A DNA stretch of 61,669 bases from Candidatus Omnitrophota bacterium (GCA_029004355.1 JAQURV010000001.1:1-61669), one strand, 5' to 3'; shown: positions 7,735 through 49,843, numbered from the stretch's first letter. Translations and numbers: made by a program. Notes: generated from the sequence alone by a model not told the origin.

Positions 7735-8792
7735 AGAAGATAGTGACCATAATAGGCGCCCGGCCGCAGTTCATAAAGATGGCTCTAGTGTCGAAGGCGT
7801 TAAAGGCAAATGGCATAAAAGAGGTAGTGATCCATACCGGCCAGCATTATGACAAGAATCTATCGGCCATATTTTTTAAGGAACTCGGCATAGCCCGGCC
7901 CGACTATAACCTTGGCGTAGGATCCGGCCCTTATCGTGAGCAGGTGACCGGTATGCTCACCGGCATAGAGAAGGTCCTGGCCCGCGAAAAGCCGGCGATC
8001 GTATTGGTCTATGGAGATACCAATTCGACCGTTGCGGGGGCGTTCGCGGCGTCAAAGGGCGGGTTTGCGATCGCGCATGTAGAAGCTGGCTTAAGGAGCT
8101 TTAACCGCAATATGGCAGAAGAGGTGAACCGCATTATCACGGATGCCCTGGCAGACATATTGTTCTGTCCGACGAGGACGGCGGTCGATAACCTGGAAAA
8201 GGAAGGCAGGTCCGACGGCGTATATCTTGTCGGCGACGTGATGTATGATTCCATAAAATGGAATATGGACAGGATAAAGCACGCCCCCGGAAGATCACAG
8301 TACATTTTATGCACGATACACAGGGCGGAGAACGCGGATTCGGCAGAAAACTTACACGAAATATTCAAGGCCCTGGGTTCCATAAAAAAGAAGGTGATAT
8401 TGCCGCTCCATCCCAGGACAGCCGGGGCCTTAAAAAAGTATGGCATTAAGGCAGGGTCGAATATCGGCATCATCAAGCCGGTCAGTTATATGAAGATGCT
8501 CGACCTGGAACAGCATGCAAATGTCATAATTACCGATTCGGGCGGCGTTCAAAAAGAAGCGTTTATATTTGGTATACCCTGTGTTACCATAAGAGGCCAA
8601 ACGGAATGGGTGGAATCCGTCCGGAGCCGCATGAATATTGTCGTAGAAGCGAAGTCGGGAAAGATAGTATCGGCGGTTAGGAAAATGGAAAGACGCAGGA
8701 AGAAAGTAGACCCGGAAGTTTACTATGGCAATGGATACGCGCACCGGAAGATAGCCGATATACTTGAAAAGGAGCTCGCAGAGTCGAAATGA
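7731..8792 (+). CDS. wecB: UDP-N-acetylglucosamine 2-epimerase (non-hydrolysing type)
   Basis: 353 aa with IIGARPQFIKMA, HTGQHYD, YGDTNST and HVEAGLRSFNRNMAEEVNR. It starts with an ATGA overlap on the upstream stop. Confidence 0.85.
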   Translation: MKKIVTIIGARPQFIKMALVSKALKANGIKEVVIHTGQHYDKNLSAIFFKELGIARPDYNLGVGSGPYREQVTGMLTGIEKVLAREKPAIVLVYGDTNSTVAGAFAASKGGFAIAHVEAGLRSFNRNMAEEVNRIITDALADILFCPTRTAVDNLEKEGRSDGVYLVGDVMYDSIKWNMDRIKHAPGRSQYILCTIHRAENADSAENLHEIFKALGSIKKKVILPLHPRTAGALKKYGIKAGSNIGIIKPVSYMKMLDLEQHANVIITDSGGVQKEAFIFGIPCVTIRGQTEWVESVRSRMNIVVEAKSGKIVSAVRKMERRRKKVDPEVYYGNGYAHRKIADILEKELAESK

Positions 8793-9757
8793 AGAGAGTG
8801 CTGATAACCGGCGTTGCCGGAATGATCGGATCGCACCTGGCGGATGAGCTTTTAAATAGGGGGTACGCGGTAACGGGCATCGACAATCTTAATGTCGGCA
8901 CCAGAAAGAATATCGCGTCCAGCCTTAAGAATAGTAGTTTCAAATTTATAAAATGCGATATAACCGATCCCGCGTCGCTTAAAAAGGCCGCTTCGAAGAC
9001 AGAGATAATAGTGCACATGGCCGCCTCCAAAAAGATAGGGGAGTCGGGCGATGCCCTGAAGACCTTGAAGATAAATTGCGAAGGTACGCGCAACGTCTTC
9101 GATTGCGCTAAGGCCATCGGTGCGAAAGTGGTATTTGCTTCGACCTCGGATGTTTACGGGTCCTCAGGCGATATCCCGTTCAGGGAGGATGGCAGGCTTG
9201 TCATAGGTTCCCCGACGGCAAAGAGGTGGGCGTATGCGGTCTCGAAGATATACGGGGAGCAGCTGGCGTTTGCCTGCTACAAGGAAGACAATGTCCCGAT
9301 AGTGGTGCTTCGTTATTTCGGGGCCTTCAGCTCCCGTTCAAGTTTTACCTGGAGCGGCGGGCATATCCCTGTCTTTATCGACGCCGTTCTAAACGACAGG
9401 GAGATAGTGATCCACGGCGACGGCAAACAGACCCGTTCTATGGCATATGTGGATGATGTTGTGAACGGTACGGTGCTTGCTCTGGAGAGCCGTAAAGCTG
9501 TAGGCGAGATCTTCAATATAGGCAACGATGAAGAGGTGAGCGTTATCGATACCGCCAGGCTGATACAAAGAGTATGCGGCAAGAAGAAGATCAAGATACG
9601 ATTTGTCCCCCAGAGCAAGGTCTTTGGCGATTACGAAGAGATAAAGAGACGTGTGCCTGATCTTTCGAAGGCAAAGCTGTTCTTGGGATACGCGCCCAAG
9701 GTCAGTTTTGAAGAAGGTTTAAGGCTGGTTATAAAAACCCATAAACATAGGACATAA
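8789..9757 (+). CDS. NAD-dependent epimerase/dehydratase (extended SDR)
   Basis: 322 aa with GVAGMIGSHL (GxxGxxG) and the YAVSK catalytic YxxxK. ATGA overlap with the upstream gene. Confidence 0.85.
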   Translation: MKRVLITGVAGMIGSHLADELLNRGYAVTGIDNLNVGTRKNIASSLKNSSFKFIKCDITDPASLKKAASKTEIIVHMAASKKIGESGDALKTLKINCEGTRNVFDCAKAIGAKVVFASTSDVYGSSGDIPFREDGRLVIGSPTAKRWAYAVSKIYGEQLAFACYKEDNVPIVVLRYFGAFSSRSSFTWSGGHIPVFIDAVLNDREIVIHGDGKQTRSMAYVDDVVNGTVLALESRKAVGEIFNIGNDEEVSVIDTARLIQRVCGKKKIKIRFVPQSKVFGDYEEIKRRVPDLSKAKLFLGYAPKVSFEEGLRLVIKTHKHRT

Positions 9758-9763: not shown

Positions 9764-11185
9764 ATGGTCGATATTGTGCTGGTCTATCCTCCCGTCACGC
9801 TTACAGGGAGATACGGCGAAGTGGCGGGCGGCAGCGAAGTGCCTCCTCAGCCCCTCATCTATCTTTCCGCAATCCTGAAGAAGGCCGGATTTACCGTAGA
9901 GATAATAGACGCAAACGCACTGCGGTGGTCTTTAGAAGAGACGGTGGATAGCATTATAGCGCGGTCGCCAAAAGTAGTGGGCATCACCGCCCCGACCATG
10001 CTGATAGCCACAGCCGGACTTATTTCCGAGAAGGTAAAAGGACGCAATAAGGATATCCTTGCGGTAGTCGGAGGGCCCCATATCACGGCAGTGCCTGAGG
10101 AGACCATGGCTGCATATCCGCATATCGATATCGGCGTCATAGGAGAAGGCGAGATAACGGCCGTTGAGCTGATGAAGGCGGTCTCCGGGTCCGGCAAGAG
10201 ATCTCTCGATCCGGTGGACGGTATCATATACCGGCATAACGGCGGATTGAAGATGACCCGGAAGAGGGAATATATAAAAGACCTCGACACCTTACCCATG
10301 CCGGATTGGGGCGCTTTGCCGGACATACTCAGCCATTACCAGCAGTCCGTGGCAAGGATAGACCGGCTGCCGGCCATGTCTATTACTACATCGCGGGGGT
10401 GCCCGTATAGATGCACATTTTGCGCAAGGAACGTCTTCGGCAATACCTTAAGAACTCACAGCGCCGGCTATATCATGAAATGCATAAAGCATCTGAAAGA
10501 GAAATACAAGATAAGGAGCCTGGCCATAGAAGACGAGAATTTCGTCGTCTTTAAGAGCCGTCTTGCGGAACTTTGCCGGAGGATGATAGACGAGAAACTG
10601 GACATAACGTGGTCGTGCGCTTCAAGTATCAACGAAGTCAATCCGGAGATGCTGCGCCTCATGAAGAAGGCGGGCTGCTGGCAGATATCGTTCGGCATCG
10701 AAAGCGGTTCACAGCGCATACTCGATTTTATAAAGAAGGGGACGAAGATCCCGACCATCGAAAGCGCCCTGAAGATGACGAGGCGGGCCGGGATCATGAC
10801 CAAAGGTTATTTTATAATAGGCCATTTGACGGAGACTAAAGAGACTATAAGAGAGACGATAGATTTCGCCAAGAGGATATCCCTGGACGATTTCCAGATG
10901 TCTTTTATGGTGCCTTTGCCAGGGACCGAAGCATACACGATGGCGTGCGACTACGGCGCTTTCAATAACAACTGGTCGGAGATGAACATCTGGACGCCGG
11001 TCTTTATCCCGAAAGGCCTGACCCAGCATGACCTCGAGAGCCTGTCAAAGCAGGCCTTCAGGGAATTCTATTTCAGGCCCGGGCCCGTAGCGAATTTTTT
11101 AAAGAGGGCGTCCCGGCCGGCATACTTCAGGAAGTATTTTAAAGACGGCCTGAAGATCTTCAAATTCCTTTTAAAGAGCCGCTAA
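9764..11185 (+). CDS. B12-binding-domain radical SAM protein (paralog 3)
   Basis: 473 aa with IVLVYPP, VVGGPHITAVPEE and TSRGCPYRCTFC. Confidence 0.85.
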   Translation: MVDIVLVYPPVTLTGRYGEVAGGSEVPPQPLIYLSAILKKAGFTVEIIDANALRWSLEETVDSIIARSPKVVGITAPTMLIATAGLISEKVKGRNKDILAVVGGPHITAVPEETMAAYPHIDIGVIGEGEITAVELMKAVSGSGKRSLDPVDGIIYRHNGGLKMTRKREYIKDLDTLPMPDWGALPDILSHYQQSVARIDRLPAMSITTSRGCPYRCTFCARNVFGNTLRTHSAGYIMKCIKHLKEKYKIRSLAIEDENFVVFKSRLAELCRRMIDEKLDITWSCASSINEVNPEMLRLMKKAGCWQISFGIESGSQRILDFIKKGTKIPTIESALKMTRRAGIMTKGYFIIGHLTETKETIRETIDFAKRISLDDFQMSFMVPLPGTEAYTMACDYGAFNNNWSEMNIWTPVFIPKGLTQHDLESLSKQAFREFYFRPGPVANFLKRASRPAYFRKYFKDGLKIFKFLLKSR

Positions 11186-11201
11186 AGCGATAAGGAGAAG
11201 C

Positions 11202-12005
11202 ATGGCAGACAGGACCATACGGTTTATAATCCCCGCTTATAACGAGGGAAGTAATATCGCTCCTTTGCTTGAGAAGACTGACCAGAAGATGCGCGAGAAG
11301 GGATGTCGCTATCAGATAATCATAATCAACGACGGGAGCACCGACGATACAAAAGATACCGTTGAAAAATACGCAAAGCGTATGCCCATACAATTATTCA
11401 ATCACGATGGCAATAAGGGGGTCGGCGAAGCTTTCAGGAACGGTTTTGAGCTTGCCCTGAAAGGATCTTCCGGAGCCGACGTTATCATTACAAAAGAGGC
11501 CGACAACACGAGCGACCTGGGCATATTGGACAGTATGTTAAAGAAGATCGACGAAGGATACGATGTCGTGCTGGCCTCGTGTTATGCAAAAGGAGGCAAG
11601 GTGGTCGGGACTACCATAGACCGCCGCATCCTGAGTTCTATCGCGAATCTGTTCTTGAGTATCTTCTTCCCGATCAAAGGGGTGCGCACGTACAGTTCGT
11701 TCTACAGGGCGTATCGCGCAGATAACCTTAAGCGAGCCTTTGCGGCTTACGATAACCGCCTGATAGAAGAGAAGGGATTCGTCTGCATGGTGGAGATGCT
11801 GATAAAGCTGAGCCGCCTCCCCCTGCAGATAACGGAGATACCGATGATCCTCCGGTGCGATTTCAGGAAAGGCAAGAGCAAGATGAATAAGACGCGCACG
11901 ATAGCCACATACCTGCGTTTGATGACAAAGCGGTTCGGGAACGATGCGGGTATAGACGAAATAGTGGATCGATATAATAATATCACCGCGAGGCCCAAGG
12001 TATGA
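11202..12005 (+). CDS. Dpm1/ArnC-like GT2 (polyprenyl-phosphate sugar synthase type)
   Basis: 267 aa. It has a short soluble GT2 domain with IIPAYNEGSNI, IIIINDGSTDDT and ITKEADNTSD. An AAGGAG SD lies upstream, and the next gene is a GT-C-like membrane protein. Confidence 0.75.
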   Translation: MADRTIRFIIPAYNEGSNIAPLLEKTDQKMREKGCRYQIIIINDGSTDDTKDTVEKYAKRMPIQLFNHDGNKGVGEAFRNGFELALKGSSGADVIITKEADNTSDLGILDSMLKKIDEGYDVVLASCYAKGGKVVGTTIDRRILSSIANLFLSIFFPIKGVRTYSSFYRAYRADNLKRAFAAYDNRLIEEKGFVCMVEMLIKLSRLPLQITEIPMILRCDFRKGKSKMNKTRTIATYLRLMTKRFGNDAGIDEIVDRYNNITARPKV

Positions 12006-13531
12006 TATTCACCGCAGAGCAGAAGAAGGCCGGATCCGTTCTTCTCGTTATAGCCCTGCTCTTTATAGGGCTCTTGCTCAGGTCCATCAATATCGATAAA
12101 GAGATCTCCGGCGACGAGGCGCTGATCATGGGAATATGCAGCCAGGATTTCAATACGATGGTCGGCATGTTCATGAAGGCCGACGTCTATCCGCCGCTGC
12201 CATATATGGTGGTGCACTATATGCTTAAAGTCAATAAGGCCGTAGCTTTTATAAGGAGTTATTTCGTCCTTTTCGGTCTAGGCGCCTGCCTTATCATATA
12301 TCTATTGGCCAAAGAATATTTCAACATAACCGTCGCCAGGCTGGCTCTTACATTGAGCGTATTTTCTCCCATCTCGATCTTTACGTCGCAATATATCCGG
12401 AGCTATATCGACTCGGCATTTTGGATATTGCTATCATGCCTGTTCATGTTGAAGCTGTTAAAGGGAAAGGACCGTTTGGCCTATTGGCTGGGATATGTCC
12501 TTGCCGCTGCGGTCAGCCTGTATACTTTTTATCTCTCGGCATTGCTTATCGTCGCGCAGGCCGTATTCGTCACCATCCTCTTGTTCAGAGATAAGAAGAG
12601 ATTGCTTAAATGGTATGCGGCATTCCTCCTGGTAGGCCTGTGTTTCTTACCATGGCTGCCATCGGCCATCCACCAGTATAATAATATATCGATAGATAAT
12701 TATGACTGGTCGCAAAAAGGTTTCAATATAGGGCCTCTCCGGGTAGGCCTCTATATCCGTAATATATTTTCGGTCATAGGATTTGACCCATTCTTTATGG
12801 TATTCCGCGATGGAGCGGCCAGCCACTTCTCCGGGATGAAAGCATTATTGACGGCATCGGGCTTGACGGCCTTATTTATCGCATTTATTTATTACGTCAG
12901 GTCGCTCAAGAAGGGCGGGCCAAGGCTGCGGAGAGAACCGGCCGGATTCTTCTACTTTTTATTATTGGCGCCGCTTCTTATGCTGTGGATCATGGCGGGC
13001 GCCTTCAATATACTGCCGAATGCAAGATACCTGGTGGTCTTGAACGGATTCTTTCTCATAATCGCGGCAAGCGCGATATCGGAGATCTTCAGGGCAAAGC
13101 GCGTTTTAGGCATCCTGGCGGGCGTATTATTGATAGGGATCTTTGCCTCGAGGATCGCAAGCGCGGTAGGGCCCGAATTTGAATATAAGAAAGCGTCTTC
13201 ATTTATCGAAAAGAACATGCCCGAAGGAAGTTACCTGATCTGCGTATCGGTGCGCCCGGAGCTGGAGCGGCCGTATGCGTCTATAGACTTCGCGGACTAT
13301 ATAAAATTGAACGATAAGAAATCGGCTTATGTCATTTCGTCCGCCCAAAAGCTTGAAGAAGTGAAGGGTATTCTGGCGAAAGCCAAAAAGATATGGTTCT
13401 ACAGGGTTTATGGTAACATGGAAGTCTTCGGCGCCAATAATATAGTGGAAGAACTGCTTAAAAGAGAGGGTTATTCGAAGAAGGACACGGACCTTTTCAA
13501 AAATATCGATATAACGAGGTATGAGAAATAA
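12002..13531 (+). CDS. GT-C-fold membrane glycosyltransferase candidate (ArnT/PMT_2-like) with soluble C-terminal domain
   Basis: 509 aa and multi-pass. The first loop carries SGDEALI...YPPLPY, followed by the LFGLGACLIIYLLAKEYF pattern typical of PMT_2 proteins. ATGA overlap with the upstream GT2. Confidence 0.7.
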   Translation: MIFTAEQKKAGSVLLVIALLFIGLLLRSINIDKEISGDEALIMGICSQDFNTMVGMFMKADVYPPLPYMVVHYMLKVNKAVAFIRSYFVLFGLGACLIIYLLAKEYFNITVARLALTLSVFSPISIFTSQYIRSYIDSAFWILLSCLFMLKLLKGKDRLAYWLGYVLAAAVSLYTFYLSALLIVAQAVFVTILLFRDKKRLLKWYAAFLLVGLCFLPWLPSAIHQYNNISIDNYDWSQKGFNIGPLRVGLYIRNIFSVIGFDPFFMVFRDGAASHFSGMKALLTASGLTALFIAFIYYVRSLKKGGPRLRREPAGFFYFLLLAPLLMLWIMAGAFNILPNARYLVVLNGFFLIIAASAISEIFRAKRVLGILAGVLLIGIFASRIASAVGPEFEYKKASSFIEKNMPEGSYLICVSVRPELERPYASIDFADYIKLNDKKSAYVISSAQKLEEVKGILAKAKKIWFYRVYGNMEVFGANNIVEELLKREGYSKKDTDLFKNIDITRYEK

Positions 13532-13532
13532 T

Positions 13533-14960
13533 ATGAAGATCGTGCTATTGAATCCTCCGATGAGTTTCGAGGCGGCCCTGGGGAAGGCCAAGGATATCGG
13601 TAAGTATACGGTGATGATACCCCACGGTTTGGCCAGCATGGCTGCCGTACTGCGGGAAAACAATATCCGGTGCAATGTCATGGACGCATACGCGGAGAAT
13701 CTCAGCATCAAGGAGATAGTCGCCAGGATATCCGAACATAAGCCGTCGATAGTCGGGATCTCTGCCGTGACACCGGTGATCAATATCGTCCATTCGATCG
13801 CAAGCGAGATCAAAAAGAATAACCCGTCCGTCAGGATAGTTCTGGGCGGGCCGCACCCCTCGATCCTGCCGGGCGAAGTTTTGAATGATCCAAATGTAGA
13901 TTTTGTCATAACCGGCGAAGGAGAGTATGCATTTTTGGATCTGGCCCGTGCCCTGGATAAAAATTCCGACGTCGGCAGTATCCCCGGGGTCTCTTATCGC
14001 AAGAGCGGATCCACAATCCATAATAAACCGGCGACATATATTAAAGACCTGGATGCTCTGCCTCCTCCCGCGTATGATATGCTGCCGATGGATCTATATA
14101 CCACTCCGCCCCAATGGTCGCTGGCTTCGCCTTCATATCAGTTGATAGCTACCAGGGGATGCCCTTACGCTTGCGGTTTTTGCCGCGTCGGCCTCGGGGA
14201 AGAGGTGCGTTATAAGAGCGCCGGGAGGGTGTGCGATGAGATCGAATATTTGATAGAACACCATGATTGCAAACAGATCGTCTTTGTGGACACTACCTTC
14301 CCGTTCAACCTGAAACATGCCGAACAGGTATGTAATGAGATGATCTCCAGGGGCCTGAACAAAAAGATAGTCTGGTTTACCAGCACGAGGGTCGACATTG
14401 TCAATCAGCATATGCTCGATCTGATGTATAAGGCAGGATGCAGGCTGGTGACTTTCGGGATAGAGTCCGGCAACCAGCATATATTGGATTCGATCAATAA
14501 AAGGATAACGTTGAAACAGGCGGAAAAGGCCGTAGCGATGGCGCATAAGGCAAAGATCAATGTCACCGCCTCATATATACTCGGCCTGCCGGGAGAAGAC
14601 CGCCGGAGCATATTGAACACGATCAGGTTCGCGAAGAGATTGAATACGCTTTATGCGCAGTTCAATATAATCGTTCCGTATCCCGGGACGAAAGTATTCG
14701 ATTATGCGGTCCGGAATAACCTGTTGAGGCACAGGAATTGGGACAGCTACGTCTCTCTCACATCCCTGACCGATCTCGAGCCTCCGTTCGTGGCGGAGGG
14801 CCTGGACAAAGAAGAATTATTGGGCCTCCAGCGCAAGGCCTATAACAATTATTACCTGAGCCCGCGTCTGATAATGAAACATCTGAAGAAAGTGATAGTC
14901 AACCGCGAATTCAAAAAATATTTTACTTTGACGAGGATATTGTTCGACACGTTCAAGTAA
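13533..14960 (+). CDS. B12-binding-domain radical SAM protein (paralog 4)
   Basis: I chose ATG 13533 (MKIVLLNPP, matching the paralog N-termini) because it lies 1 nt after the upstream TAA. ATG 13521 is an alternative start. Motifs are IVLGGPHPSILPGE and ATRGCPYACGFC. Confidence 0.85.
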   Translation: MKIVLLNPPMSFEAALGKAKDIGKYTVMIPHGLASMAAVLRENNIRCNVMDAYAENLSIKEIVARISEHKPSIVGISAVTPVINIVHSIASEIKKNNPSVRIVLGGPHPSILPGEVLNDPNVDFVITGEGEYAFLDLARALDKNSDVGSIPGVSYRKSGSTIHNKPATYIKDLDALPPPAYDMLPMDLYTTPPQWSLASPSYQLIATRGCPYACGFCRVGLGEEVRYKSAGRVCDEIEYLIEHHDCKQIVFVDTTFPFNLKHAEQVCNEMISRGLNKKIVWFTSTRVDIVNQHMLDLMYKAGCRLVTFGIESGNQHILDSINKRITLKQAEKAVAMAHKAKINVTASYILGLPGEDRRSILNTIRFAKRLNTLYAQFNIIVPYPGTKVFDYAVRNNLLRHRNWDSYVSLTSLTDLEPPFVAEGLDKEELLGLQRKAYNNYYLSPRLIMKHLKKVIVNREFKKYFTLTRILFDTFK

Positions 14961-14975
14961 GGTGCGGATATAACG

Positions 14976-15650
14976 ATGAGCGATAAAGAATATTTTAAAA
15001 GGTTGTTCGATTCGCATTATCTCGACGAGATCGCCTTCTCCGAGAGGAAGAAGATATTCGACATGTTTGTCGAAAGGATCCGCCCCCGTCCGGACGAAAA
15101 GATCGTCGACATAGGGGTCTTCTGCGGCTCGACCGACCCAAAGATGAATTTTTTAGAGATGCTTTACGGCCATCCGGAAAAGATCACCGCTGTCGGGATC
15201 GAAGACGCAAGTTTCCTGGAGAGCCAATACAGCGGGTTAAAATTCATACGGACGGCGCCGGGCGCGGCGCTGCCTTTTGGGGACAACCAGTTCGATATCG
15301 GATTTTGCAGCGCCACCATAGAACACGTAGGCTCGCCGGATAGGCAGAGATATTTTCTTTCGGAAGCTATAAGGGTGTGTAAAAGGCTCTTCCTTACGAC
15401 ACCCAACCGTTTTTACCCGGTCGAATTCCATACGCGCGCGGTCTTTTTACATTGGCTGCCGAAGCCGGTTTTCAGGAAGATCATTAAATGCCTGGGCCTG
15501 GAATTTTATTCCAGAGAAGATAACCTTAACCTTCTTGATAAGGGAGAACTTCTGGCGCTGGTGCCGGAGCAGCACTCAAGACGTGCGCGCGTCATTTGTC
15601 ACAGGTTGTTTGGATTACCGTCAAACCTGATACTTATTGTGGAAAAATAG
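14976..15650 (+). CDS. Class I SAM-dependent methyltransferase (Methyltransf_11-like)
   Basis: 224 aa with IVDIGVFCG and LPFGDNQFDIGFCSATIEHV. Confidence 0.75.
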   Translation: MSDKEYFKRLFDSHYLDEIAFSERKKIFDMFVERIRPRPDEKIVDIGVFCGSTDPKMNFLEMLYGHPEKITAVGIEDASFLESQYSGLKFIRTAPGAALPFGDNQFDIGFCSATIEHVGSPDRQRYFLSEAIRVCKRLFLTTPNRFYPVEFHTRAVFLHWLPKPVFRKIIKCLGLEFYSREDNLNLLDKGELLALVPEQHSRRARVICHRLFGLPSNLILIVEK

Positions 15651-15651
15651 A

Positions 15652-17310
15652 ATGAAGAGATTTGCATTGCCCATACTTTGGATTATGATTTTGGTAATTT
15701 GCCTGAAATTAGCCTTAGGCTTATACGGCATTACCTGGGGAAATCCGGACCGCTGGGATGTCGACGATCGCCTGACCGCGGCGCTGAGGATGGTATCCGA
15801 AAAAACTTTTTTCTATAGTACCGTTCAATTCGCCCACCCGGTCTTTTACCTTTATTTTTTATTGGCCGCTCTGGTGCCGTATCTGGTCTTTTTGAAACTT
15901 ACGGGGTTTGACTTTCAGATAGCAAGAGAAGCGGCTTCAGCCTCCTGGCTTAATCTCACCAGGGTTTGTCCTGATCTTGCAAGCGGGATGCTCATATCCG
16001 GCAGGGTATCGTCGCTCTTGCTAGGCGCAGGCACCGTTTTGATAGTCTTCTTTCTGGCAAGAAGGATCTATGGGGCCAGGGCCGCCATTTTTTCGGCTAT
16101 TATACTGACCCTGAACGTTGGTTTGCTCGGGACGAACTATCTCATTAAGAACGAGAATCTTGCGCTATTCCTGATAGTCCTGGTCCTTTATATCTGGTCC
16201 GGTTTTTCGCAAAAAGAATTCAAATATAAAAGATTCTACTTGAGCTGCTTCTTATCGGGTTTAGCCATAGGAACGAAACTTGATTCGGCGATACTTCTAT
16301 TCGGCATAGGTTTGATGATGTTGCACCATTTAAGAAGTCCGATATTGAAGATAAGCAGGAAGACAGTATTTATTTTGGCAAGCTGCATATTTCTCTTGTT
16401 GGGAATACTGGCCGGTTATCCGCGGCTTATAGTCCCGGTGGATGCCCCCATGGGCGTTATCGACGGGTCCGTAAAAGCATTCTCTATATTATTTTCCGTT
16501 CCGACTATTTCGAATATAGCGCAGCAGGTAAGGACGGTTGCGCTTAACCTGGCGGCGTCTTTTAACGTTGTTATCTTGGTATTTTTAGTTTTGGGTATCC
16601 GGGCCTTCTTTGCCAGGCGTGAGAATTTTAAATATCCGGCATACCCCATATTTTCGATACTCATCCCGTATTTTTTCATCAATATCTTTTTGTATAGATT
16701 TGCCGCTACCAAATTTCTTGTCCTCTCCTTGCCTCTATTGGCGGTCCTGGCAGGGCTCGGTTTTGAACTGTTCTGGGTAAAGATGGCGCCGCGTAAACCC
16801 GCCAGGGCGGCCCTCTCGATCTTGACACTGATCTATTCTCTCTTTTATATCGTCAGGGCGGATATGGTATTTGCGAAGGATGATACGCGGTATATTTCTA
16901 CGCGGTGGATGGATAAGAATATTCCCGCCGGCGCAAGCATAGCCATATTGCAGCAACCGGAATTGATCTTCTCCTCGTTCCTTATAGGAAAGTACAGGGT
17001 CTATTATTTCGGAGAGAGATTGAGCTACGATAACAATCCGTACCCGAAGATGAGGATGACCGATATGAAAGGAGAGGCTTTTTTGAAAGGTATCTCCGGT
17101 TATGATTACGTCGTCCTGTCATCCTGGGATCGTATGGCGTTCGAGACCGGGACCAAGGATACGGTGAAAGAGACGTTTAGCGGCAACAGCAACTATGAAT
17201 TGGTAGAGACCGTACAGTATGATGAGGACCTGTTCTTTAATCCCAGGCCCTCCCACACGTGTCCGACGATATTCATATTTAAAACTTTAAGTAAGGAGCG
17301 GGCATCTTGA
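15652..17310 (+). CDS. GT-C-fold membrane glycosyltransferase candidate (ArnT/PMT_2-like) with soluble C-terminal domain
   Basis: I preferred ATG 15652 over the track's TTG at 15637. The protein is multi-pass, with first loop WGNPDRWDVDD and GRVSSLLLGAGTVLIVFFLARRIYG, and ends in a soluble tail of about 130 aa. Confidence 0.7.
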   Translation: MKRFALPILWIMILVICLKLALGLYGITWGNPDRWDVDDRLTAALRMVSEKTFFYSTVQFAHPVFYLYFLLAALVPYLVFLKLTGFDFQIAREAASASWLNLTRVCPDLASGMLISGRVSSLLLGAGTVLIVFFLARRIYGARAAIFSAIILTLNVGLLGTNYLIKNENLALFLIVLVLYIWSGFSQKEFKYKRFYLSCFLSGLAIGTKLDSAILLFGIGLMMLHHLRSPILKISRKTVFILASCIFLLLGILAGYPRLIVPVDAPMGVIDGSVKAFSILFSVPTISNIAQQVRTVALNLAASFNVVILVFLVLGIRAFFARRENFKYPAYPIFSILIPYFFINIFLYRFAATKFLVLSLPLLAVLAGLGFELFWVKMAPRKPARAALSILTLIYSLFYIVRADMVFAKDDTRYISTRWMDKNIPAGASIAILQQPELIFSSFLIGKYRVYYFGERLSYDNNPYPKMRMTDMKGEAFLKGISGYDYVVLSSWDRMAFETGTKDTVKETFSGNSNYELVETVQYDEDLFFNPRPSHTCPTIFIFKTLSKERAS

Positions 17311-19941: not shown

Positions 19942-21372
19942 ATGAAGATAGCGCTAGTATATCCTCCATTCCTGAATTCGATACAGACTACAGTGCCGGA
20001 CTTTGTCAATGACAACGAGGGCTTCTTTCAGCCTCTCGGCATCCTGTATCTGGCTTCTTACCTGAAGGAGCACGAAAAAGGCTGCGACATACTGGTCGTA
20101 GATGCCGTTGCGGAGGGTTTAAACCACCTTCAGGTCGGCCAGAGGCTCGCGGATTTCTCCCCGGACGTCGTCGGGATATCCTGCTGGACATTCTCACTCA
20201 TCGATTCCATTAAAGTCGCCGGAGAGGCCAAGGCCAGGGTGCCGAAGGCACACGTCTGCCTTGGCGGGCCTCACGCCACGATATACCCCGAAGAGACCGC
20301 AAGCTTTAAAGACGTCGATTTCGTCATTACGGGCGACGGGGAGCGTCCCTTTGCGGAGCTTATCAGGCAGCTCTCCGGCAAGAGAGACTTTAACCTCGTG
20401 CCGAATCTATATCACAAGACGGGAGGCGCGGTCAAGAAGAGCCCCTTGGCCCACGTAGAGCGAGACCTGGACGGCCTGCCTTTCCCGGACAGAAAACTCG
20501 TATCGATGAAGAATTATCATTCGATAATAGACAAGGGTGAGATCATCACCACGATGATCACGTCCCGCGGATGCCCTTTTCAATGCAGGTTCTGTTTACA
20601 GCAAAACACCGGCTGGAGATACAGGGAGATACCCGGCATCATCGAAGAGATGCGGCAATGTATCGATTCGGGGATAAAGAATTTCTTCATATTCGACGAG
20701 ACGTTCACGGTCAATAAAAAGAGGATCCTCGACTTGTGCGACGAGATCATAAGAAGGAAGATGAGGATAAACTGGAGTTGCCGCTCGCGCGTCGATACGA
20801 TAGACGGAGAGATCATGGACCGCATGAAGGCGGCCGGATGTTCCAGGATAAGTTTCGGGGTCGAGTCCGCCAGCGATGAGGTGTTGAAACAGCTTAATAA
20901 AAAGATCAGTATCGCGCGCGCGAAGGAGACGTTCAGGACCGCGAAAAGTAAGAAGCTGATAACGCTTGCCGATTTTATGATAGGCTGCCCCGGAGAAGAC
21001 AGGAAGGCCACCTCCGATACGGTCAAATTGGCGCTGGAACTGGATCCCGACTACGTCCAATTTACGCTATTCACTCTATTCCCGGCAACCGAGCTATATG
21101 AAGAAGCGCTGGCGAAGGGGATCGTAAAGACCGACGTATGGCTTGGTTACGCCAGGCAGCCGGGCGCTGACTTTAAGCCTCCCATATGGAACATATATAA
21201 TGAAGACGAAGCCAGGGAACTTGTGGTAGGCGCGTATAAAAAATTCTACCTGAGGATCTCCTACATATTTAAAAGGTTGATAAAGACGGGCTCAGCGGAT
21301 GAGCTTGGGAAGTATGTGAGAGCGGGTTTAGGGCTTATAAAGGCGCTATTTGACCGGCGTAAAGGGCAATGA
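19942..21372 (+). CDS. B12-binding-domain radical SAM protein (paralog 5)
   Basis: 476 aa with MKIALVYPPF, VCLGGPHATIYPEE and TSRGCPFQCRFC. Confidence 0.85.
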   Translation: MKIALVYPPFLNSIQTTVPDFVNDNEGFFQPLGILYLASYLKEHEKGCDILVVDAVAEGLNHLQVGQRLADFSPDVVGISCWTFSLIDSIKVAGEAKARVPKAHVCLGGPHATIYPEETASFKDVDFVITGDGERPFAELIRQLSGKRDFNLVPNLYHKTGGAVKKSPLAHVERDLDGLPFPDRKLVSMKNYHSIIDKGEIITTMITSRGCPFQCRFCLQQNTGWRYREIPGIIEEMRQCIDSGIKNFFIFDETFTVNKKRILDLCDEIIRRKMRINWSCRSRVDTIDGEIMDRMKAAGCSRISFGVESASDEVLKQLNKKISIARAKETFRTAKSKKLITLADFMIGCPGEDRKATSDTVKLALELDPDYVQFTLFTLFPATELYEEALAKGIVKTDVWLGYARQPGADFKPPIWNIYNEDEARELVVGAYKKFYLRISYIFKRLIKTGSADELGKYVRAGLGLIKALFDRRKGQ

Positions 21373-22754
21373 AGATCAAAGATATAATATTCGGGTGTAT
21401 TTTGGGGGCCATATCGGTATTTTCACCGGCGTCTTTTCTGGTCCTGGGCGCCTTCCTTCTGTCATTGTGGCTTATAAAAAAGTACATAAGGACCGAATCG
21501 CAAAAGTTCTTGATAGCTATATTCATAACGGGATTTATTTTGCGGGTCATCCTTTCATCTTTCAATTACTATGCCGCGGAATCCGCCGGGATCGGCTCGG
21601 ATATCCAGCCGGACGCAAGAGTCTATAATACCAACGCTTTTTATATAGCCTCTGTTATCACCGGTAATAAGTATGATCAGGCAATGGATAGGGACGCGAT
21701 CTTAAAGAAAGGTATGGAGGTGGCAGGGGCTATACACAGAGGCAAACTCCCGCCCGTAGGGACCTACCAGATCGGTTTCTATGTCTACCTTATAGGATGG
21801 ATATATTCCCTCCTGGGATATTGCCCGATCGCCATGAAGATCATGAATTCCGTTTTTGGATGCGGCACCGCGATATTGACCTATCTGATCGCAAGGCGCA
21901 TATCCGGCTCTGAAATAATTTCGAAGGCATCGGCCGCGGTCGTTATGTTCTTCCCGTCGATGGTGCTCTGGTCAGCGGCCCTTCTACGCGATACGATCGC
22001 TAATTTCTTATTTCTCGCTTACATGCTTTCTTTGCTTGTATATATTGGATCAGGCAGCAGGAGATCGCTCGTAATGTCTTTGATATCGACCATCGTATTG
22101 AGCCTCTTCAAGGAAAAGGCCGTCCTTCTCTTGGCGGCAGGGTTCGTCTTTGTTTTAATAGCCGGCTTATTCAGAAGGATACTTAACAGGAAACACCTTA
22201 CAGTCTTTGTTGCGTTATTTTTTATTTTTACCGTAACAGCGGGGATCTTTTTGTCCAACAAAAATTTCATAACCCGCCAGTTGCATGACAAGACAATATC
22301 TATGTTCACCCAGCACCAGAGCTATGCGGCAGATGACAGGGCGTTCGTCTACAGGATATTCAAGGATTCTATATATGAAAAGGGAAAATTGCAGCTCAGC
22401 GATTTTTCCGACGCGTCGCTCTATTTTTCGGTATTTAAGGCCCTGGCCTATTTTTTCCTTTCCCCGTTCCCGTGGCAAGTGCCGTATTATCATCTCGGGC
22501 TGCTGATGTTCTATCCGCAGGTCCTCGCGACATTTATCTCTTTGCCGTTCATCATGCTCGGTCTTCTTATGTCTATGCGGCGTAATATGTATGTGACGGC
22601 AATTATTGTAATGGTACTGGCCCTGATCGCCGTGCCGTATGCCCTTGCGGAAGGGGTGGTCGGCATCGTGGTGCGCCACAGAGACATGTTTATGCCGTTC
22701 CTGGTCATCTTCGCGAGCTATGGATTTTTCCGTCCGAAAGCCGGTGTCGAATGA
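21369..22754 (+). CDS. Polytopic membrane protein, GT-C-like or polymerase-like
   Basis: 461 aa with at least 10 hydrophobic segments. An early loop reads GSDIQPDARVY, followed by IAMKIMNSVFGCGTAILTYLIARRISG (PMT_2-like). There is no soluble domain. ATGA overlaps occur at both ends. Confidence 0.55.
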   Translation: MKIKDIIFGCILGAISVFSPASFLVLGAFLLSLWLIKKYIRTESQKFLIAIFITGFILRVILSSFNYYAAESAGIGSDIQPDARVYNTNAFYIASVITGNKYDQAMDRDAILKKGMEVAGAIHRGKLPPVGTYQIGFYVYLIGWIYSLLGYCPIAMKIMNSVFGCGTAILTYLIARRISGSEIISKASAAVVMFFPSMVLWSAALLRDTIANFLFLAYMLSLLVYIGSGSRRSLVMSLISTIVLSLFKEKAVLLLAAGFVFVLIAGLFRRILNRKHLTVFVALFFIFTVTAGIFLSNKNFITRQLHDKTISMFTQHQSYAADDRAFVYRIFKDSIYEKGKLQLSDFSDASLYFSVFKALAYFFLSPFPWQVPYYHLGLLMFYPQVLATFISLPFIMLGLLMSMRRNMYVTAIIVMVLALIAVPYALAEGVVGIVVRHRDMFMPFLVIFASYGFFRPKAGVE

Positions 22755-24205
22755 AGATAGTCCTCATATATCCGCTGCTGTCCAGGGCGAGGAGCCTTGT
22801 CGACGAGAATAAACAGTATTGGCCGCCGCTGGGCCTTGCGTATATTGCCGCGGTATTGGAGAAGAGCGGCCACAAAGTGAAGATAGTCGACAGGGACGCC
22901 CTGCTCCATAAATATGCCATGTCCTTCGAGAGAACGGACGAAGAGACCCTGGCTGTGATAGGGCGGGAGAACGCCGATATGGTAGGCTTCAGCGCTACTA
23001 CGCCCAACGTGGGGGATGTCTTAACCTTCTCCTCAAAGATCAAAAAAAGTTTTCCGGGCGTAAAGATAGTGCTCGGAGGGCCGCATTCAAGCGGCGAGCC
23101 GGAGTATACGCTCAACCTGACGAATGATATAGACGCCCTTTGCAGAGGTGAGGGTGAATCCACGATGCTCGACCTGGCGTCGGGTAAGGCTTTGGGCGAG
23201 ATACCCGGAGTGAGCTTCAAGTCCGGGAAGACTATAGTGCATAACGCGGAAAGACCGCTTATAAATAACATAGATGACCTTCCCATGCCGGCCCATCACC
23301 TTTTGGATATGGAATTTTATCTGCGGCCAAGCAGGTTCACCAGCAGGAACCTGAGCTTGCGGACCACATCTATATTTACGGCAAGGGGCTGCCCGTACAG
23401 ATGTAATTTCTGCGCAGGCCCTCTGATCTTCTCCGGCAAGGTCAGGTTCCATTCTTCGCAAAGGGTCCTCGAGGAGATGGAGCGCCTGATAACCGACTAT
23501 GGCATAGAGGCGCTCTACTTTGCCGAAGACATGTTTTTAAGCGATAAACGCAGGGCGAACGAGATACTGGAGCTGTTTATACGTAAAGGTATAAATAAGA
23601 AGATCCGCTGGTTCGCCCAGGCGAAGGTGAACGTTATAGACAAGGAGCTGCTCGTGCTTATGAAACGAGCCGGTTGCGTAGGGATCGAATACGGATTTGA
23701 GTCCGGCTCGCAGGAGATCTTGAACAGGATGAATAAGAAGAGCCGCGTAGAAGATAATGTAAAAGCGGCGAAGTTGACCGAAAAGGTCGGCTTAAGATAT
23801 CAGGCCAATATAATAGCGGGATATCCGGGGGAGACAAAAGAGGACTTTGAGATGACGATAGCTTTCTTGAAGAAGATAAGGCCCAGCAACATAGGGTTCA
23901 ATCAATTCATGGCGCTTCCCGGCACGCCGGAGTATGTCAGGCTGAAAAGAACGGGCGACATCTCTTATGACTGGGAAAACGTCGGTAATCCCGAAGGCGG
24001 CAAGAACTATACCGCGATGACCGACCGGGATTTCCAGAAGGTGTATGCAAAGGCAAGGATCCTGGTGATCCTTCCGCTGAACCTGGCGAATTTCATACGA
24101 TACAATATCAAAGACCCCATACGGTTCATATACCTCGTCCTGACACAATTCCGCGGGATACTTATCAAGACCGTCCGGTCCGATCTTAAGAAGATGCTGA
24201 GATGA
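22751..24205 (+). CDS. B12-binding-domain radical SAM protein (paralog 6)
   Basis: 484 aa with MKIVLIYPLL, IVLGGPHSSGEPE and TARGCPYRCNFC. Confidence 0.85.
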   Translation: MKIVLIYPLLSRARSLVDENKQYWPPLGLAYIAAVLEKSGHKVKIVDRDALLHKYAMSFERTDEETLAVIGRENADMVGFSATTPNVGDVLTFSSKIKKSFPGVKIVLGGPHSSGEPEYTLNLTNDIDALCRGEGESTMLDLASGKALGEIPGVSFKSGKTIVHNAERPLINNIDDLPMPAHHLLDMEFYLRPSRFTSRNLSLRTTSIFTARGCPYRCNFCAGPLIFSGKVRFHSSQRVLEEMERLITDYGIEALYFAEDMFLSDKRRANEILELFIRKGINKKIRWFAQAKVNVIDKELLVLMKRAGCVGIEYGFESGSQEILNRMNKKSRVEDNVKAAKLTEKVGLRYQANIIAGYPGETKEDFEMTIAFLKKIRPSNIGFNQFMALPGTPEYVRLKRTGDISYDWENVGNPEGGKNYTAMTDRDFQKVYAKARILVILPLNLANFIRYNIKDPIRFIYLVLTQFRGILIKTVRSDLKKMLR

Positions 24206-47357: not shown

Positions 47358-47367
47358 AGGGGGCGCC

Positions 47368-49448: not shown

Positions 49449-49843
49449 GGATATTTTATGTCACATTAGCGGCGTGGATGGTCCTATGGGGATGGTTTCT
49501 GATAAGGGATATCTTCGTAAAGGGCGGCATCAAGCATTACAAGGTCCTCATTACCAGGCCCTTCGAGGGAAAACGTTCGTATGTTACCGGGGATCGTCTA
49601 TATGAATTCCTGGCCTTCTCCAGGGCTAATCTGCCTCCGGATTCGAGTTTTTCTATCGTTGGACTGAAAGAAGGGGATGTCGAGAGGGTGAGGGCCGCTT
49701 ACTATCTCTATCCGCGCCTCGAGACGGACGACCCGCAATATGTGCTTGTTTATGACGCCCCGGATATCGAACGCGAGGGATATTACCAGATAGCAAAGCT
49801 CGACGGCTCCAGATATATACTGAAAAAGAGAAAGATGATGTAG
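49436..49843 (+). CDS. Small single-pass membrane-anchored protein of unknown function
   Basis: 135 aa with an N-terminal helix FYVTLAAWMVLWGWFLI and a soluble domain of about 100 aa. It overlaps the radical SAM gene by 13 nt and ends 1 nt before the GT-C candidate. Confidence 0.6.
   Translation: MVRLRIFYVTLAAWMVLWGWFLIRDIFVKGGIKHYKVLITRPFEGKRSYVTGDRLYEFLAFSRANLPPDSSFSIVGLKEGDVERVRAAYYLYPRLETDDPQYVLVYDAPDIEREGYYQIAKLDGSRYILKKRKMM

Follow-up and report, generated by a model that had tools for sequence, protein, structure and literature searches.

Soluble DPMS-type synthases include human DPM1, which acts with DPM2/3, and mycobacterial PpgS (Rv3631), which acts with a small membrane partner and a GT-C transferase. 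Sugars linked to polyprenyl phosphate can also be edited enzymatically, as by ArnD. The closest described arrangements are the three-component systems, i.e., GtrA/GtrB/Gtr* O-antigen glucosylation, ArnC/ArnD/ArnE-F/ArnT, and the pentofuranose systems (Kelly et al. 2024, PMC11127046). Among auxiliary enzymes editing polyprenyl-phosphate sugars, DprE1/E2 are known and ORF13 of C. youngae is predicted (PMC11127046). For radical SAM (rSAM) enzymes, HpnJ and Cds offer genetic precedent for the editing of lipid-linked sugars (PMC13459092, PMC9204698), and HpnJ and BchE act on lipid-linked or hydrophobic substrates (PMC9204698).

The window analyzed here, a DNA stretch of 61,669 nucleotides, is a giant cell-surface sugar gene cluster, probably of Omnitrophota origin, and Pfam domains identify eight B12-rSAM paralogs in it, the number implied by an earlier sequence-only reading. 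Tentatively, and with slightly less than even confidence, we propose that the two three-part sets in this window are modules akin to the Gtr and Arn systems, each supplying a donor for sugar attachment at the outer side of the inner membrane and each having a built-in radical tailoring enzyme that would edit the lipid-linked sugar. If so, cobalamin rSAMs may modify sugars that are already lipid-bound, an activity undescribed for this enzyme class. The earlier claim of an undescribed substrate class holds in part: lipid-linked sugar editing by rSAMs has the precedent of HpnJ and Cds, whereas the searchable literature gave no example with a polyprenyl-phosphate sugar as the substrate.

Organization of the Gene Sets

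ORF calls place both sets where the sequence-only reading had located them, each comprising a B12-binding rSAM, a short GT2 without a membrane anchor, and a PMT_2-type GT-C encoded by tightly packed or overlapping genes (Table 1).

Table 1. Features of the rSAM/GT-C gene sets and their neighbors
Feature	Position	Strand	Evidence or remark
NAD-dependent sugar epimerase/dehydratase (SDR), 6 nt upstream of rSAM paralog 3	8789..9757	+	Pfam Epimerase/GDP_Man_Dehyd
Class B (cobalamin-type) radical SAM, paralog 3	9764..11185	+	B12-binding (1e-21) + Radical_SAM (5e-21)
GT2a, soluble DPMS/Dpm1-type GT2, predicted polyprenyl-phosphate glycosyltransferase, 267 aa	11202..12005	+	PDB matches
GTC1, predicted PMT_2-type GT-C fold transferase	12002..13531	+	PMT_2 33.8 bits (cut-off 26.1)
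Class B radical SAM, paralog 4, in third rSAM/GT-C pairing	13521..14960	+	
Class I SAM methyltransferase	14976..15650	+	Methyltransf_11
GTC2, second predicted PMT_2 GT-C, absent from the sequence-only reading	15637..17310	+	PMT_2 41.3 bits; eleven hydrophobic segments
rSAM paralog 5, 461-aa polytopic membrane protein, rSAM paralog 6; two 4-nt overlaps	19942..24205	+	
GT2b, soluble DPMS/AglJ-type GT2, predicted polyprenyl-phosphate glycosyltransferase; likely start M27 of 47290 ORF	47368..48069	+	
Class B radical SAM, paralog 8	48069..49448	+	
135-aa single-pass membrane protein, fold without known match	49436..49843	+	
GTC3, predicted PMT_2-like GT-C, without soluble C-terminal domain	49845..51227	+	PMT_2 25.9 bits (cut-off 26.1)

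The GT2a and GTC1 genes share the ATGA overlap described before, and GTC1 overlaps the paralog 4 gene by 11 nt. In the second set, GT2b meets paralog 8 in a TGATG junction with a one-base overlap, and the paralog 8 gene overlaps that of the small protein by 13 nt. The GT2b start chosen in the sequence-only reading is the likeliest, with orthologs of 232–234 aa that are 71–82% identical. Around the first set, the gene order is WecB-SDR-rSAM3-GT2a.

The pattern is wider than the two sets, and the sequence-only reading understates it by missing two further pairings of rSAM and GT-C genes, at 13521–17310 and 19942–24205. The third pairing has the order rSAM4-methyltransferase-GT-C, and the arrangement around paralog 4 (MT-rSAM-PMT_2) is kept in two other loci (L081 and L083). 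A methyltransferase gene is a recurrent neighbor of the paralog 3 family, adjoining orthologs in L003, L006, and L024, and rSAM-methyltransferase fusions of ~700 aa exist (e.g., P0078, P0081, and P0092). The other stretch, rSAM5-membrane protein-rSAM6, is a possible fourth pairing: the 461-aa protein matches PMT_2 weakly (19.6 bits, E 1.2e-3) and the NCBIfam protein O-mannosyltransferase model at 7.5e-5.

Elsewhere in the window, the neighbors of paralogs 1, 2, and 7 are Leloir GT4/GT2 enzymes and DegT aminotransferases instead of DPMS-like GT2s, and DegT genes adjoin paralogs 1 and 5. A Wzy_C ligase-type protein is encoded separately. No flippase gene (GtrA, ArnE/F SMR, MATE, or Wzx-like) was found in the 61.7-kb window, which contains neither a small polytopic ORF nor a transporter-like gene; a flippase for these modules could have its gene elsewhere. 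A full Arn pathway was rejected, as the triads have no formyltransferase, NodB deacetylase, or SMR pair, and only ArnC-like, ArnT-like (PMT_2), and DegT proteins are present.

Glycosyltransferases and Associated Proteins

GT2a and GT2b contain no TM segment. The best PDB match of GT2a is Pyrococcus furiosus DPMS (5mlz, 1e-18, residues 6–255), followed by ArnC and GtrB; GT2b likewise matches DPMS (1e-18), then ArnC, then GtrB. The DPMS match covers the catalytic and interface-helix region of both proteins, and the seven best PDB matches of each are all polyprenyl-phosphate glycosyltransferases. Two control GT2s from the window match SpsA, GalT1, chondroitin synthase, and PglI instead, and none of DPMS, ArnC, or GtrB. 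These matches bear out the earlier view that the two GT2s resemble polyprenyl-phosphate glycosyltransferases and not ordinary glycan-extending enzymes, and both are predicted to belong to the former class. In NCBIfam, GT2b gave sub-threshold matches to AglJ (4e-33), PpgS, and a Dol-P-hexose transferase; neither GT2 reached any NCBIfam equivalog cut-off. For the catalytic DAD motif, GT2b has QDADLEYD and GT2a has KEADNTSD.

From their PMT_2 matches, GTC1, GTC2, and GTC3 are predicted to be GT-C transferases using a lipid-linked donor. GTC1 and GTC3 each have ten hydrophobic segments, and neither has a PDB sequence match. GTC3 lies 0.2 bits below the PMT_2 cut-off, and PMT_2 is matched by 27 of 39 representatives of the GTC3 family (5628 cluster representatives). 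The 135-aa protein (36 homologs, AF2 pLDDT 88) is conserved with the module in Omnitrophota; it gave no Pfam match and no significant Foldseek match, and no similarity to DPM3 or GtrA-type partners was detectable.

The usual substrates of the SDR class are nucleotide sugars, and in NCBIfam this SDR gave only generic sub-threshold matches (LegB-like, UDP-xylose synthase, and GalE). It is co-conserved with paralog 3 in Omnitrophota relatives, and the order SDR-rSAM-GT2, which reads naturally as a nucleotide-sugar pathway, speaks against a lipid-linked reading.

Radical SAM Paralogs

All eight paralogs carry an N-terminal B12-binding domain (PF02310) and a Radical_SAM domain. By domains, they are class B (cobalamin-type) rSAMs, with predicted cobalamin use. 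The CxxxCxxC motif of paralog 3 (C213-x3-C217-x2-C220) is invariant across 34 homologs. In the AF2 model of this paralog (pLDDT 90.8), the overall class B fold is present, the top Foldseek matches being TsrM, MgmA, AprD4, CysS, OxsB, and TokK, with E values of 1e-21 to 1e-25 for the five other than AprD4. AprD4, the best match by TM-score, has the class B fold yet does not use cobalamin. HpnJ and BchE are the best NCBIfam family models for the rSAMs of the window, and HpnJ is the best for paralogs 3 and 4. HpnJ identity was nevertheless rejected, since the scores (214.3 and 221.3 bits) are far below the TIGR03471 cut-off of 577.6 and no hopanoid genes (shc, hpn) were found in the window.

The C-terminal tail of paralog 3 has a net charge of +11 and the highest hydrophobic moment of the protein. 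Amphipathic tails charged +7 to +11, as judged from the hydrophobic moment only, occur in seven of the eight paralogs. Such predicted tails are also present in paralogs outside the triads. The expectation that paralogs 3 and 8 cluster together fails: the tree sets the paralog 3 family apart from the seven other paralogs (bootstrap 99%), and paralog 8 groups with paralog 5 at 0%. By BLAST, the best match of both is paralog 4. In our reading, rSAMs of several lineages were recruited into one module architecture, and the split does not refute the functional link; such modules contain rSAMs of at least three lineages. In Omnitrophota, the paralog 8 orthologs are 60–80% identical and nearly all 459–462 aa long.

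Conservation across Genomes

The three-part set is conserved at the ortholog loci of paralogs 3 and 8 in related genomes. Five of the six sampled paralog 8 orthologs keep GT2-rSAM plus a GT-C, a class for which about a third of the hydrophobicity-based candidates in other loci have no GT-C Pfam support; the sixth ortholog (L087) is an orphan. The block GT2-rSAM8-small protein-GT-C-GmhB occurs in L085, L086, L169, and L170. In L168, four genes form a self-contained cassette, small protein-GT-C-GT2 (71% identical)-rSAM (65% identical), that retains the TGATG junction and is set among unrelated, non-glycan genes with no nucleotide-sugar gene. For paralog 3, Omnitrophota orthologs show the order GT-C-SDR-rSAM3-GT2 (L002, L005, and L081–L083), L092 has WecB-SDR-rSAM3-GT2a as in the window, and GT2a orthologs 50–56% identical sit directly after rSAM3 orthologs. 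A third rSAM lineage is found as GT2-rSAM-PMT in L082 and L083.

Across 80 genomes of many phyla, a DPMS-like GT2 adjoins the paralog 3 ortholog in 28% of loci, compared with 8% for the other genes of the same loci (odds ratio 4.1, p=3.5e-6); such a neighbor is missing from the remaining 72%. The loci that have it come, among others, from Nanoarchaeota and Woesearchaeota (DPANN archaea), Nitrospirota, Hydrogenedentes, and Planctomycetota. When gene order was shuffled within the window, p was 0.095 for both DPMS-like GT2s adjoining an rSAM, 0.082 for each of the four GT-C-like genes having an rSAM no more than two genes away, and 0.008 jointly. Conservation across genomes is the stronger evidence of the two.

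From the side of the GT2, an rSAM adjoins GT2a relatives in only 2 of 80 cases, and relatives with and without such a neighbor are interleaved at 50–62% identity. GT2a itself is closest (60%) to that of the rSAM-less L089, where an ArnD-type NodB deacetylase and a methyltransferase occupy the slot of the rSAM; Formyl_trans_N and NodB genes are carried by L082 and L089. Since close GT2 relatives lack the rSAM, it is dispensable.

Proposed Pathway and Alternative Explanations

By homology, the soluble DPMS-type GT2 would take its sugar from a nucleotide sugar and, on the cytoplasmic side of the membrane, attach it to polyprenyl phosphate. The translationally coupled cobalamin rSAM, probably held at the membrane through its cationic amphipathic C-terminal helix, would then perform C-H functionalization on the sugar before flipping; we think that it most likely acts after loading, on the polyprenyl-phosphate sugar. 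The reaction would most likely be C-methylation, or else a rearrangement or oxidation like those of HpnJ and BchE. The PMT_2 GT-C would then pass this edited sugar to an extracytoplasmic acceptor, to judge from the neighboring genes probably the LPS core or O-antigen. As an optional accessory, exchanged for methyltransferases or NodB deacetylases in relatives, the rSAM would diversify the surface glycan.

As the predicted substrate of the rSAM, a polyprenyl-phosphate sugar is slightly favored over a nucleotide sugar because of the L168 cassette, the interleaved GT2 relatives, and the cationic tails; the HpnJ and BchE models, the NodB deacetylase and methyltransferase of L089, and the known auxiliary editing enzymes add to this leaning. 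It is unlikely, if far from fanciful, that the rSAM instead acts one step earlier, on a soluble nucleotide sugar made by the adjacent SDR or WecB, with the GT2 loading the modified product. The conserved SDR-rSAM-GT2 order, seen in six loci besides the window (L002, L005, L081–L083, and L092, the last also with WecB), fits such a step equally well. DegT aminotransferases, which adjoin paralogs 1 and 5, act on nucleotide keto-sugars, and characterized sugar-modifying cobalamin rSAMs and relatives (GenK, GenD1, Fms7, and AprD4, the last being the best structural match) use soluble substrates (PMC9204698). Yet SDRs can work on polyprenyl-phosphate sugars too (DprE2 and, as predicted, C. youngae ORF13), the rSAM of L168 would need to edit the housekeeping nucleotide-sugar pool, the interleaving of GT2a relatives runs contrary to a switch in donor specificity, and the second triad, like L082/L083, is ordered GT2-rSAM-GT-C.

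A broader doubt is that the rSAMs tailor other intermediates of the cluster, either the Und-PP-linked repeat unit built by GT2/GT4s or the acceptor, and that adjacency comes from tailoring genes being tightly packed and reshuffled within a hypervariable surface-glycan island and does not point to a common substrate. The surroundings of paralogs 1, 2, and 7 mean that the rSAM family is not specific to lipid-phosphate sugars, and the crowding of eight paralogs in one locus, the marginal p values of the single permutation measures (about 0.08–0.09), the 72% of paralog 3 orthologs lacking the GT2 neighbor, and the dispensability of the rSAM near GT2a all agree with packing. Nevertheless, this explanation is improbable: in five of the six genomes sampled, one of them with a cassette away from any glycan cluster, the GT2b-rSAM8 pair persists at 65–80% identity with its one-base overlap, GT2 adjacency is 4-fold above that of other genes of the same loci, and the arrangement recurs among archaea and with three different rSAM lineages. 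Mere coincidence of annotation, with ordinary glycan-extending GT2s, polytopic polymerases or ligases, and no lipid-phosphate-sugar module, is very improbable. The sub-threshold NCBIfam scores of both GT2s, the lack of PDB sequence matches for GTC1 and GTC3, the narrow Pfam shortfall of GTC3, and the unsupported third of GT-C candidates elsewhere would allow it, but the uniform PDB matches of GT2a and GT2b, absent from the controls, the above-threshold PMT_2 matches of GTC1 and GTC2, the PMT_2 matches among GTC3 relatives, and the separate Wzy_C protein all argue against it.

Comparison with Known Systems

The rSAMs of the window share their enzyme class and fold with the cobalamin rSAM methylases GenK, GenD1, Fms7, and MoeK5 and with the related dehydratase AprD4. 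The targets of all these enzymes are carbon atoms of carbohydrates, and the pathway of MoeK5 is a phosphoglycolipid one. These enzymes, however, belong to antibiotic pathways with soluble or specialized intermediates, and none is tied to a polyprenyl-phosphate GT2/GT-C pair or to LPS-type loci. In HpnI/HpnK/HpnJ (hopanoid cyclitol ether) and Cds (calditol synthase), much as proposed here, a GT puts a hexose or hexosamine on a membrane lipid and an rSAM is then proposed to edit that sugar, HpnJ being cobalamin-type like the rSAMs of the window. The difference is that the carrier here would be polyprenyl phosphate instead of a membrane end-product, and the sugar would pass to a GT-C instead of staying on the lipid. 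DPM1 and PpgS resemble the second set in combining a TM-less DPMS-like GT2, a small membrane protein, and a GT-C, but no rSAM takes part there.

The three-component systems likewise combine a GT2 polyprenyl-phosphate glycosyltransferase with a GT-C in an LPS-type locus, and they have their own optional cytoplasmic auxiliaries that alter the lipid-linked sugar (the deformylase ArnD, DprE1/E2, and, as predicted, the SDR ORF13). Yet GtrB and ArnC possess C-terminal TM helices that the GT2s of the window lack, and the window has no GtrA, SMR, or MATE flippase gene. Distinctively, the auxiliary here is a cobalamin rSAM, not reported for those systems, and several modules are stacked in one locus.

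Organization of the glycan locus and its rSAM sets

The window contains about 50 genes between 572 and 60905, every one on the + strand, and up to about 53.9 kb it is a single very large surface-glycan locus with about 47 glycan genes. An Omnitrophota contig (L085, Candidatus Omnitrophota) is fully syntenic over the housekeeping genes and the glycan genes upstream of them, with 64–89% protein identity, which makes an Omnitrophota bacterium the most likely source of the window. Across the 61.7-kb window no flippase candidate of the Wzx, ABC-transporter, GtrA, SMR, or MATE type was found; genes for export and flipping would have to lie outside it.

The sequence-only reading had described two sets, each joining a B12-binding radical SAM gene (rSAM) to a Dpm1/ArnC-like GT2 and an ArnT/PMT_2-like GT-C candidate, and both were found as described. 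In the first set, the CxxxCxxC motif of paralog 3 is invariant, a gap of 16 nt separates paralog 3 from GT2a, and GT2a overlaps GTC1 by 4 nt (ATGA). The second set runs in the order GT2, rSAM, small protein, PMT_2-like GT-C. GT2b and paralog 8 overlap by one base (TGATG), and the small 135-aa protein overlaps paralog 8 by 13 nt. The longest open reading frame of GT2b most likely starts too early, by 47290–47367, because its orthologs have 232–234 aa. Likewise, the GmhB phosphatase most likely begins with MRPIFIDRDGV..., its longest frame starting too early by 51071–51220; the 186-aa form scores 166.8 bits against the NCBIfam cut-off of 178.

The rSAM/GT-C pattern is wider than first proposed, with two more pairings. 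In the third pairing, paralog 4 overlaps the end of GTC1 and the group has no GT2 of its own; a single DPMS-like GT2 may feed two GT-Cs. Modules of rSAM and PMT_2 resembling that of paralog 4 are present in two relatives (L081 and L083), preceded in L083 by a methyltransferase. The membrane protein between paralogs 5 and 6, with 8 hydrophobic segments, a weak PMT_2 match (19.6 bits), and an NCBIfam PMT match (7.5e-5), is possibly a fourth, divergent GT-C. A GT-C-like gene lies within two genes of six of the eight rSAM paralogs. The FAD amine-oxidase-like gene directly follows GTC2 with a 4-nt overlap, and similar proteins occur again near rSAM/GT-C genes in L021, L041, L044, and L089.

Features of the window (+ strand) and of the loci and proteins of its relatives
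Feature	Position	Strand	Description
Paralog 3	9764–11185	+	B12-binding and Radical_SAM domains
GT2a	11202–12005	+	DPMS-like GT2, 267 aa, zero hydrophobic segments
GTC1	12002–13531	+	PMT_2 above Pfam cut-off; about ten hydrophobic segments
Third pairing	13521–17310	+	rSAM paralog 4, class I methyltransferase, GTC2
GTC2	15637–17310	+	clear PMT_2
FAD gene	17307–18740	+	FAD amine-oxidase-like, PRK07208 "hypothetical protein" type; weak UDP-galactopyranose-mutase-like N-terminus
Further pairing	19942–24205	+	rSAM paralogs 5 and 6 around a 461-aa membrane protein; 4-nt overlaps on both sides
GT2b	47368–48069	+	DPMS-like GT2; most likely start given
Paralog 8	48069–49448	+	rSAM
135-aa protein	49436–49843	+	single-pass membrane protein
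GTC3	49845–51227	+	polytopic; PMT_2 score 0.2 bits below cut-off
GmhB	from 51221	+	phosphatase; most likely start given
Other glycan genes		+	WecA-type initiating phosphotransferase, Wzy_C/O-antigen-ligase-type protein, GT9 heptosyltransferase; WecB; several SDR epimerase/dehydratases, two DegT aminotransferases, AsnB, carbamoyltransferase
Gene families of the glycan locus		+	GT2 (10), GT4 (6), B12-binding radical SAM paralogs (8)
Housekeeping genes	3' end of window	+	UDG, PriA, Fmt
L168 cassette	L168:1364–5386		small protein, PMT_2 GT-C, GT2, rSAM
Orphan rSAM	L087:8001–9383		paralog-8-like, 62% identical
rSAM-less segment	L089:214–8120		mirrors the window's first-module segment
SPASM-type (non-B12) radical SAM genes	L007:8972–9958; L081:20764–21416		inside rSAM/GT2/GT-C loci of Brocadia and Omnitrophota relatives
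rSAM–methyltransferase fusions	P0078, P0081, P0092, P0096, P0104, P0110, P0114		about 700 aa
Methyltransferases	L003:11864–12625; L006:11409–12062; L024:11457–12215		adjoin paralog-3 orthologs

Identity of the glycosyltransferases and the 135-aa protein

That the two GT2s are polyprenyl-phosphate glycosyltransferases holds as far as homology shows. For both, the best PDB match is Pyrococcus DPMS (E ~1e-18, nearly the whole protein covered), followed by three ArnC sequences and GtrB, whereas two control GT2s of the window matched SpsA, GalT1, chondroitin synthase, and PglI and zero polyprenyl-phosphate enzymes. The NCBIfam models that respond to GT2a and GT2b are AglJ, PpgS, PgfS, Dol-P-hexose transferase, and ArnC, all under their equivalog cut-offs. 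The two are reciprocal best matches among the ten window GT2s, yet share only 29% identity. For the GT-C genes, PDB sequence searches with GTC1 and GTC3 as single sequences and with a 39-sequence GTC3-family profile gave no usable match, so that their GT-C status rests on Pfam and topology; PMT_2 is matched by 27 of 39 representatives of the GTC3 family.

The family of the 135-aa protein has 36 members; the few with a source name are from Omnitrophica. It is characterized by an invariant YYLYP motif, a single N-terminal TM helix, and an α/β domain confidently predicted by AF2. No match was found in Pfam or the PDB sequences, and Foldseek with the confident AF2 model returned nothing significant. 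The protein may serve as a tether to the membrane or as an accessory of the GT-C. The idea of a split-off C-terminal periplasmic GT-C domain found no support, as hhalign aligned the protein to the post-TM region of GTC1 and GTC2 with a probability of only ~1% or less.

Conservation of the sets

Under shuffling of the gene order within the window, direct contact of both DPMS-like GT2s with an rSAM has p = 0.095, a distance of ≤2 genes between each of the four GT-C-like genes and an rSAM has p = 0.082, and the two measures together have p = 0.008. By itself, this permutation is only suggestive of a non-random arrangement; the cross-genome evidence is much stronger, and bears out the expected conservation of the sets in relatives. 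Among 80 genomes with paralog-3 orthologs (38–64% identical), a DPMS-like GT2 is directly adjacent to the ortholog at 22 loci (28%). The background rate, taken from the remaining non-rSAM genes at these loci, is 8%, giving an odds ratio of 4.1 (Fisher p = 3.5e-6), with the caveat that the loci are phylogenetically non-independent. Loci with this adjacency were seen in Omnitrophota, Nitrospirota, Planctomycetota, Hydrogenedentes, Elusimicrobiota, Desulfobacterota, a CPR bacterium, and Nanoarchaeota/Woesearchaeota. GT-C genes of the survey loci were called by hydrophobicity, with Pfam GT-C support in about six in ten of a sample.

Conserved blocks surround both paralogs. In five Omnitrophota loci (L002, L005, and L081–L083), whose paralog-3 orthologs are 61–64% identical, the order GT-C–SDR–rSAM–GT2 is kept, with the GT-C on the opposite side in comparison to the window's first set. 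L082 and L083 carry an additional GT2–rSAM–PMT module from another rSAM lineage. The SPASM-type genes in L007 and L081 represent a second radical SAM class in these glycan clusters.

The paralog-8 ortholog family is tight in Omnitrophota (60–80% identity, nearly all 459–462 aa). Six of its members were looked up in context (L085, L086, L087, L168, L169, and L170), and four (L085, L086, L169, and L170) keep the order GT2 (232–234 aa)–rSAM–small protein–GT-C–GmhB. L168 holds a self-contained four-gene cassette, with a GT2 71% identical to GT2b, an rSAM 65% identical to paralog 8, and again a TGATG junction. The cassette is flanked by acyl-CoA dehydrogenase, glutaminyl cyclase, and AAA genes, remote from glycan clusters and with no further glycan gene nearby. 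The exception to the module rule is the orphan rSAM of L087: no GT2, GT-C, or other glycan gene lies within 8 kb of it, and its neighbors are MacB/FtsX transporters, peptidases, and PhzF. Taken together, these are genuine gene sets, conserved and non-random in their occurrence.

rSAM lineages and the proposed optional tailoring step

Motif, domain, and fold all mark the window rSAMs as genuine class B radical SAM proteins; their mutual identity is only 23–34%. Identity with HpnJ was rejected (about 214–221 against a cut-off of 577.6; no hopanoid gene context in the window). The sequence-only reading expected paralogs 3 and 8 to cluster together, and this failed in a 148-sequence NJ tree (100 bootstraps) and in BLAST. 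The paralog-3 family is split from the other seven at 99% bootstrap, paralog 8 is placed with paralog 5 without bootstrap support, and the best BLAST match of both paralogs 3 and 8 is paralog 4. Thus, the same architecture occurs with at least three rSAM lineages, which we read as modular recruitment and not as a refutation of the original idea.

An obligate triad was dropped, since close GT2a relatives rarely have an rSAM: only 2 of 80 metagenomic relatives have one as a neighbor, and the rSAM is accordingly taken as an optional accessory. L089 has the order NodB-type deacetylase–methyltransferase–GT2a (61%)–GTC1 (43%)–GTC2 (29%)–DegT–FAD oxidase, without an rSAM; its NodB-type polysaccharide deacetylase is ArnD-like, with an HSxxH motif read from the sequence. 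In L090, the GT2 directly follows an SDR, and distant GT2a relatives sit in ordinary SDR–SDR–GT2 (with TM)–GT-C modules. These rSAM-less arrangements suggest that the slot beside the GT2 hosts interchangeable tailoring enzymes.

Paralog-3-family rSAMs are often fused with, or adjoin, a class I SAM methyltransferase (Methyltransf_11/23/25), a pairing known, to our knowledge, in no Cbl-rSAM system. It may point to a pair of distinct methylations, or else to an rSAM that does not act as a methylase. In the fetched loci, "Rosetta-stone" fusions of an rSAM to a GT2 or to membrane domains were not found; the fusions were to class I methyltransferases only.

Stage at which the rSAM acts

The rSAM requires SAM, a reductant, and Fe–S assembly and therefore works in the cytoplasm, before flipping and GT-C transfer. 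Action at the lipid-linked stage, on a polyprenyl-phosphate sugar, is plausible and slightly favored, at close to an even chance. The L168 cassette has no nucleotide-sugar gene; hence, an earlier-acting rSAM would have to edit the housekeeping nucleotide-sugar pool. By a like argument, Kelly et al. assign their auxiliary epimerase to a step that follows loading onto undecaprenyl phosphate (PMC11127046). Furthermore, relatives of GT2a do not sort by the presence of an rSAM in their locus but intermingle at 50–62% identity, and the GT2 thus appears unchanged in donor when an rSAM is present. In L089, the slot holds an ArnD-type deacetylase instead. The C-terminus of seven of the eight paralogs is a predicted amphipathic helix of strongly cationic character (net charge +7 to +11), whose hydrophobic moment ranks among the top 3% of windows of the respective protein. 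For paralog 3, this tail is the terminal helix of the AF2 model (residues 452–470). The best family-model matches, HpnJ and BchE, also count for the lipid-linked stage. For HpnJ, glucosamine ring contraction on a hopanoid-linked sugar has been proposed, and for Cds the same contraction on a GDGT-linked hexose; for each proposal the evidence is genetic only (PMC13459092, PMC9204698).

Action on the nucleotide sugar, upstream of the GT2, is rather unlikely but has its own evidence. The SDR–rSAM–GT2 order is conserved, with WecB–SDR–rSAM–GT2 in the window and L092, and DegT aminotransferases adjoin paralogs 1 and 5. All biochemically characterized sugar-acting members and relatives (GenK, GenD1, and AprD4) use soluble substrates, and the highest TM-score among the structural matches belongs to AprD4 (0.75/0.78). 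That the rSAMs tailor other cluster intermediates is improbable. 

For the lipid-linked stage, the broader proposal is tentative and stands somewhat below an even chance: a widespread, multi-lineage cobalamin rSAM set would edit monosaccharides on polyprenyl phosphate, between a DPMS-type synthase and a GT-C, and with similar reserve its scope may extend over Omnitrophota, many anaerobic bacterial phyla, and DPANN archaea.

Significance and comparison with known systems

Cobalamin rSAM enzymes are among the largest pools of uncharacterized enzymes, and we know of hardly any carbohydrate substrate beyond antibiotic pathways. In reviews of cobalamin rSAM and lipid-modifying rSAM enzymes, polysaccharide, undecaprenyl, and polyprenyl-phosphate substrates are absent, and a full-text literature search yielded nothing tying radical SAM enzymes to GT-C, polyprenyl-phosphate, or O-antigen systems. 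If the lipid-linked stage is correct, radical SAM chemistry would gain polyprenyl-phosphate sugars as a new class of substrate, and their editing would be a new way to diversify surface glycans, e.g., with C-methylated or rearranged side-branch sugars. Unusual sugars (C-methylated, ring-rearranged) would then be predicted on uncultured Omnitrophota, anammox bacteria, Nitrospirota, and DPANN archaea, and the glycoengineering toolbox would gain extra enzymes. The portable L168 cassette, the best minimal system for experiments, and the translationally coupled GT2b–rSAM8 pair offer a small system allowing a direct test of radical chemistry on lipid-carried sugars.

The description that fits the sets best is that of lipid-carrier glycosylation modules into which an optional cobalamin rSAM tailoring step is built. 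Their nearest systems are those of three-component periplasmic glycosylation (the Gtr, Arn, and pentofuranose systems), one of the principal ways in which O-antigens and cell walls are diversified. Two of the three defining parts are present here by homology, whereas the flippase is without a counterpart in the window. In those systems, the only auxiliary enzymes known to edit the lipid-linked sugar are a deformylase and epimerases; here, the candidate editor is an rSAM.
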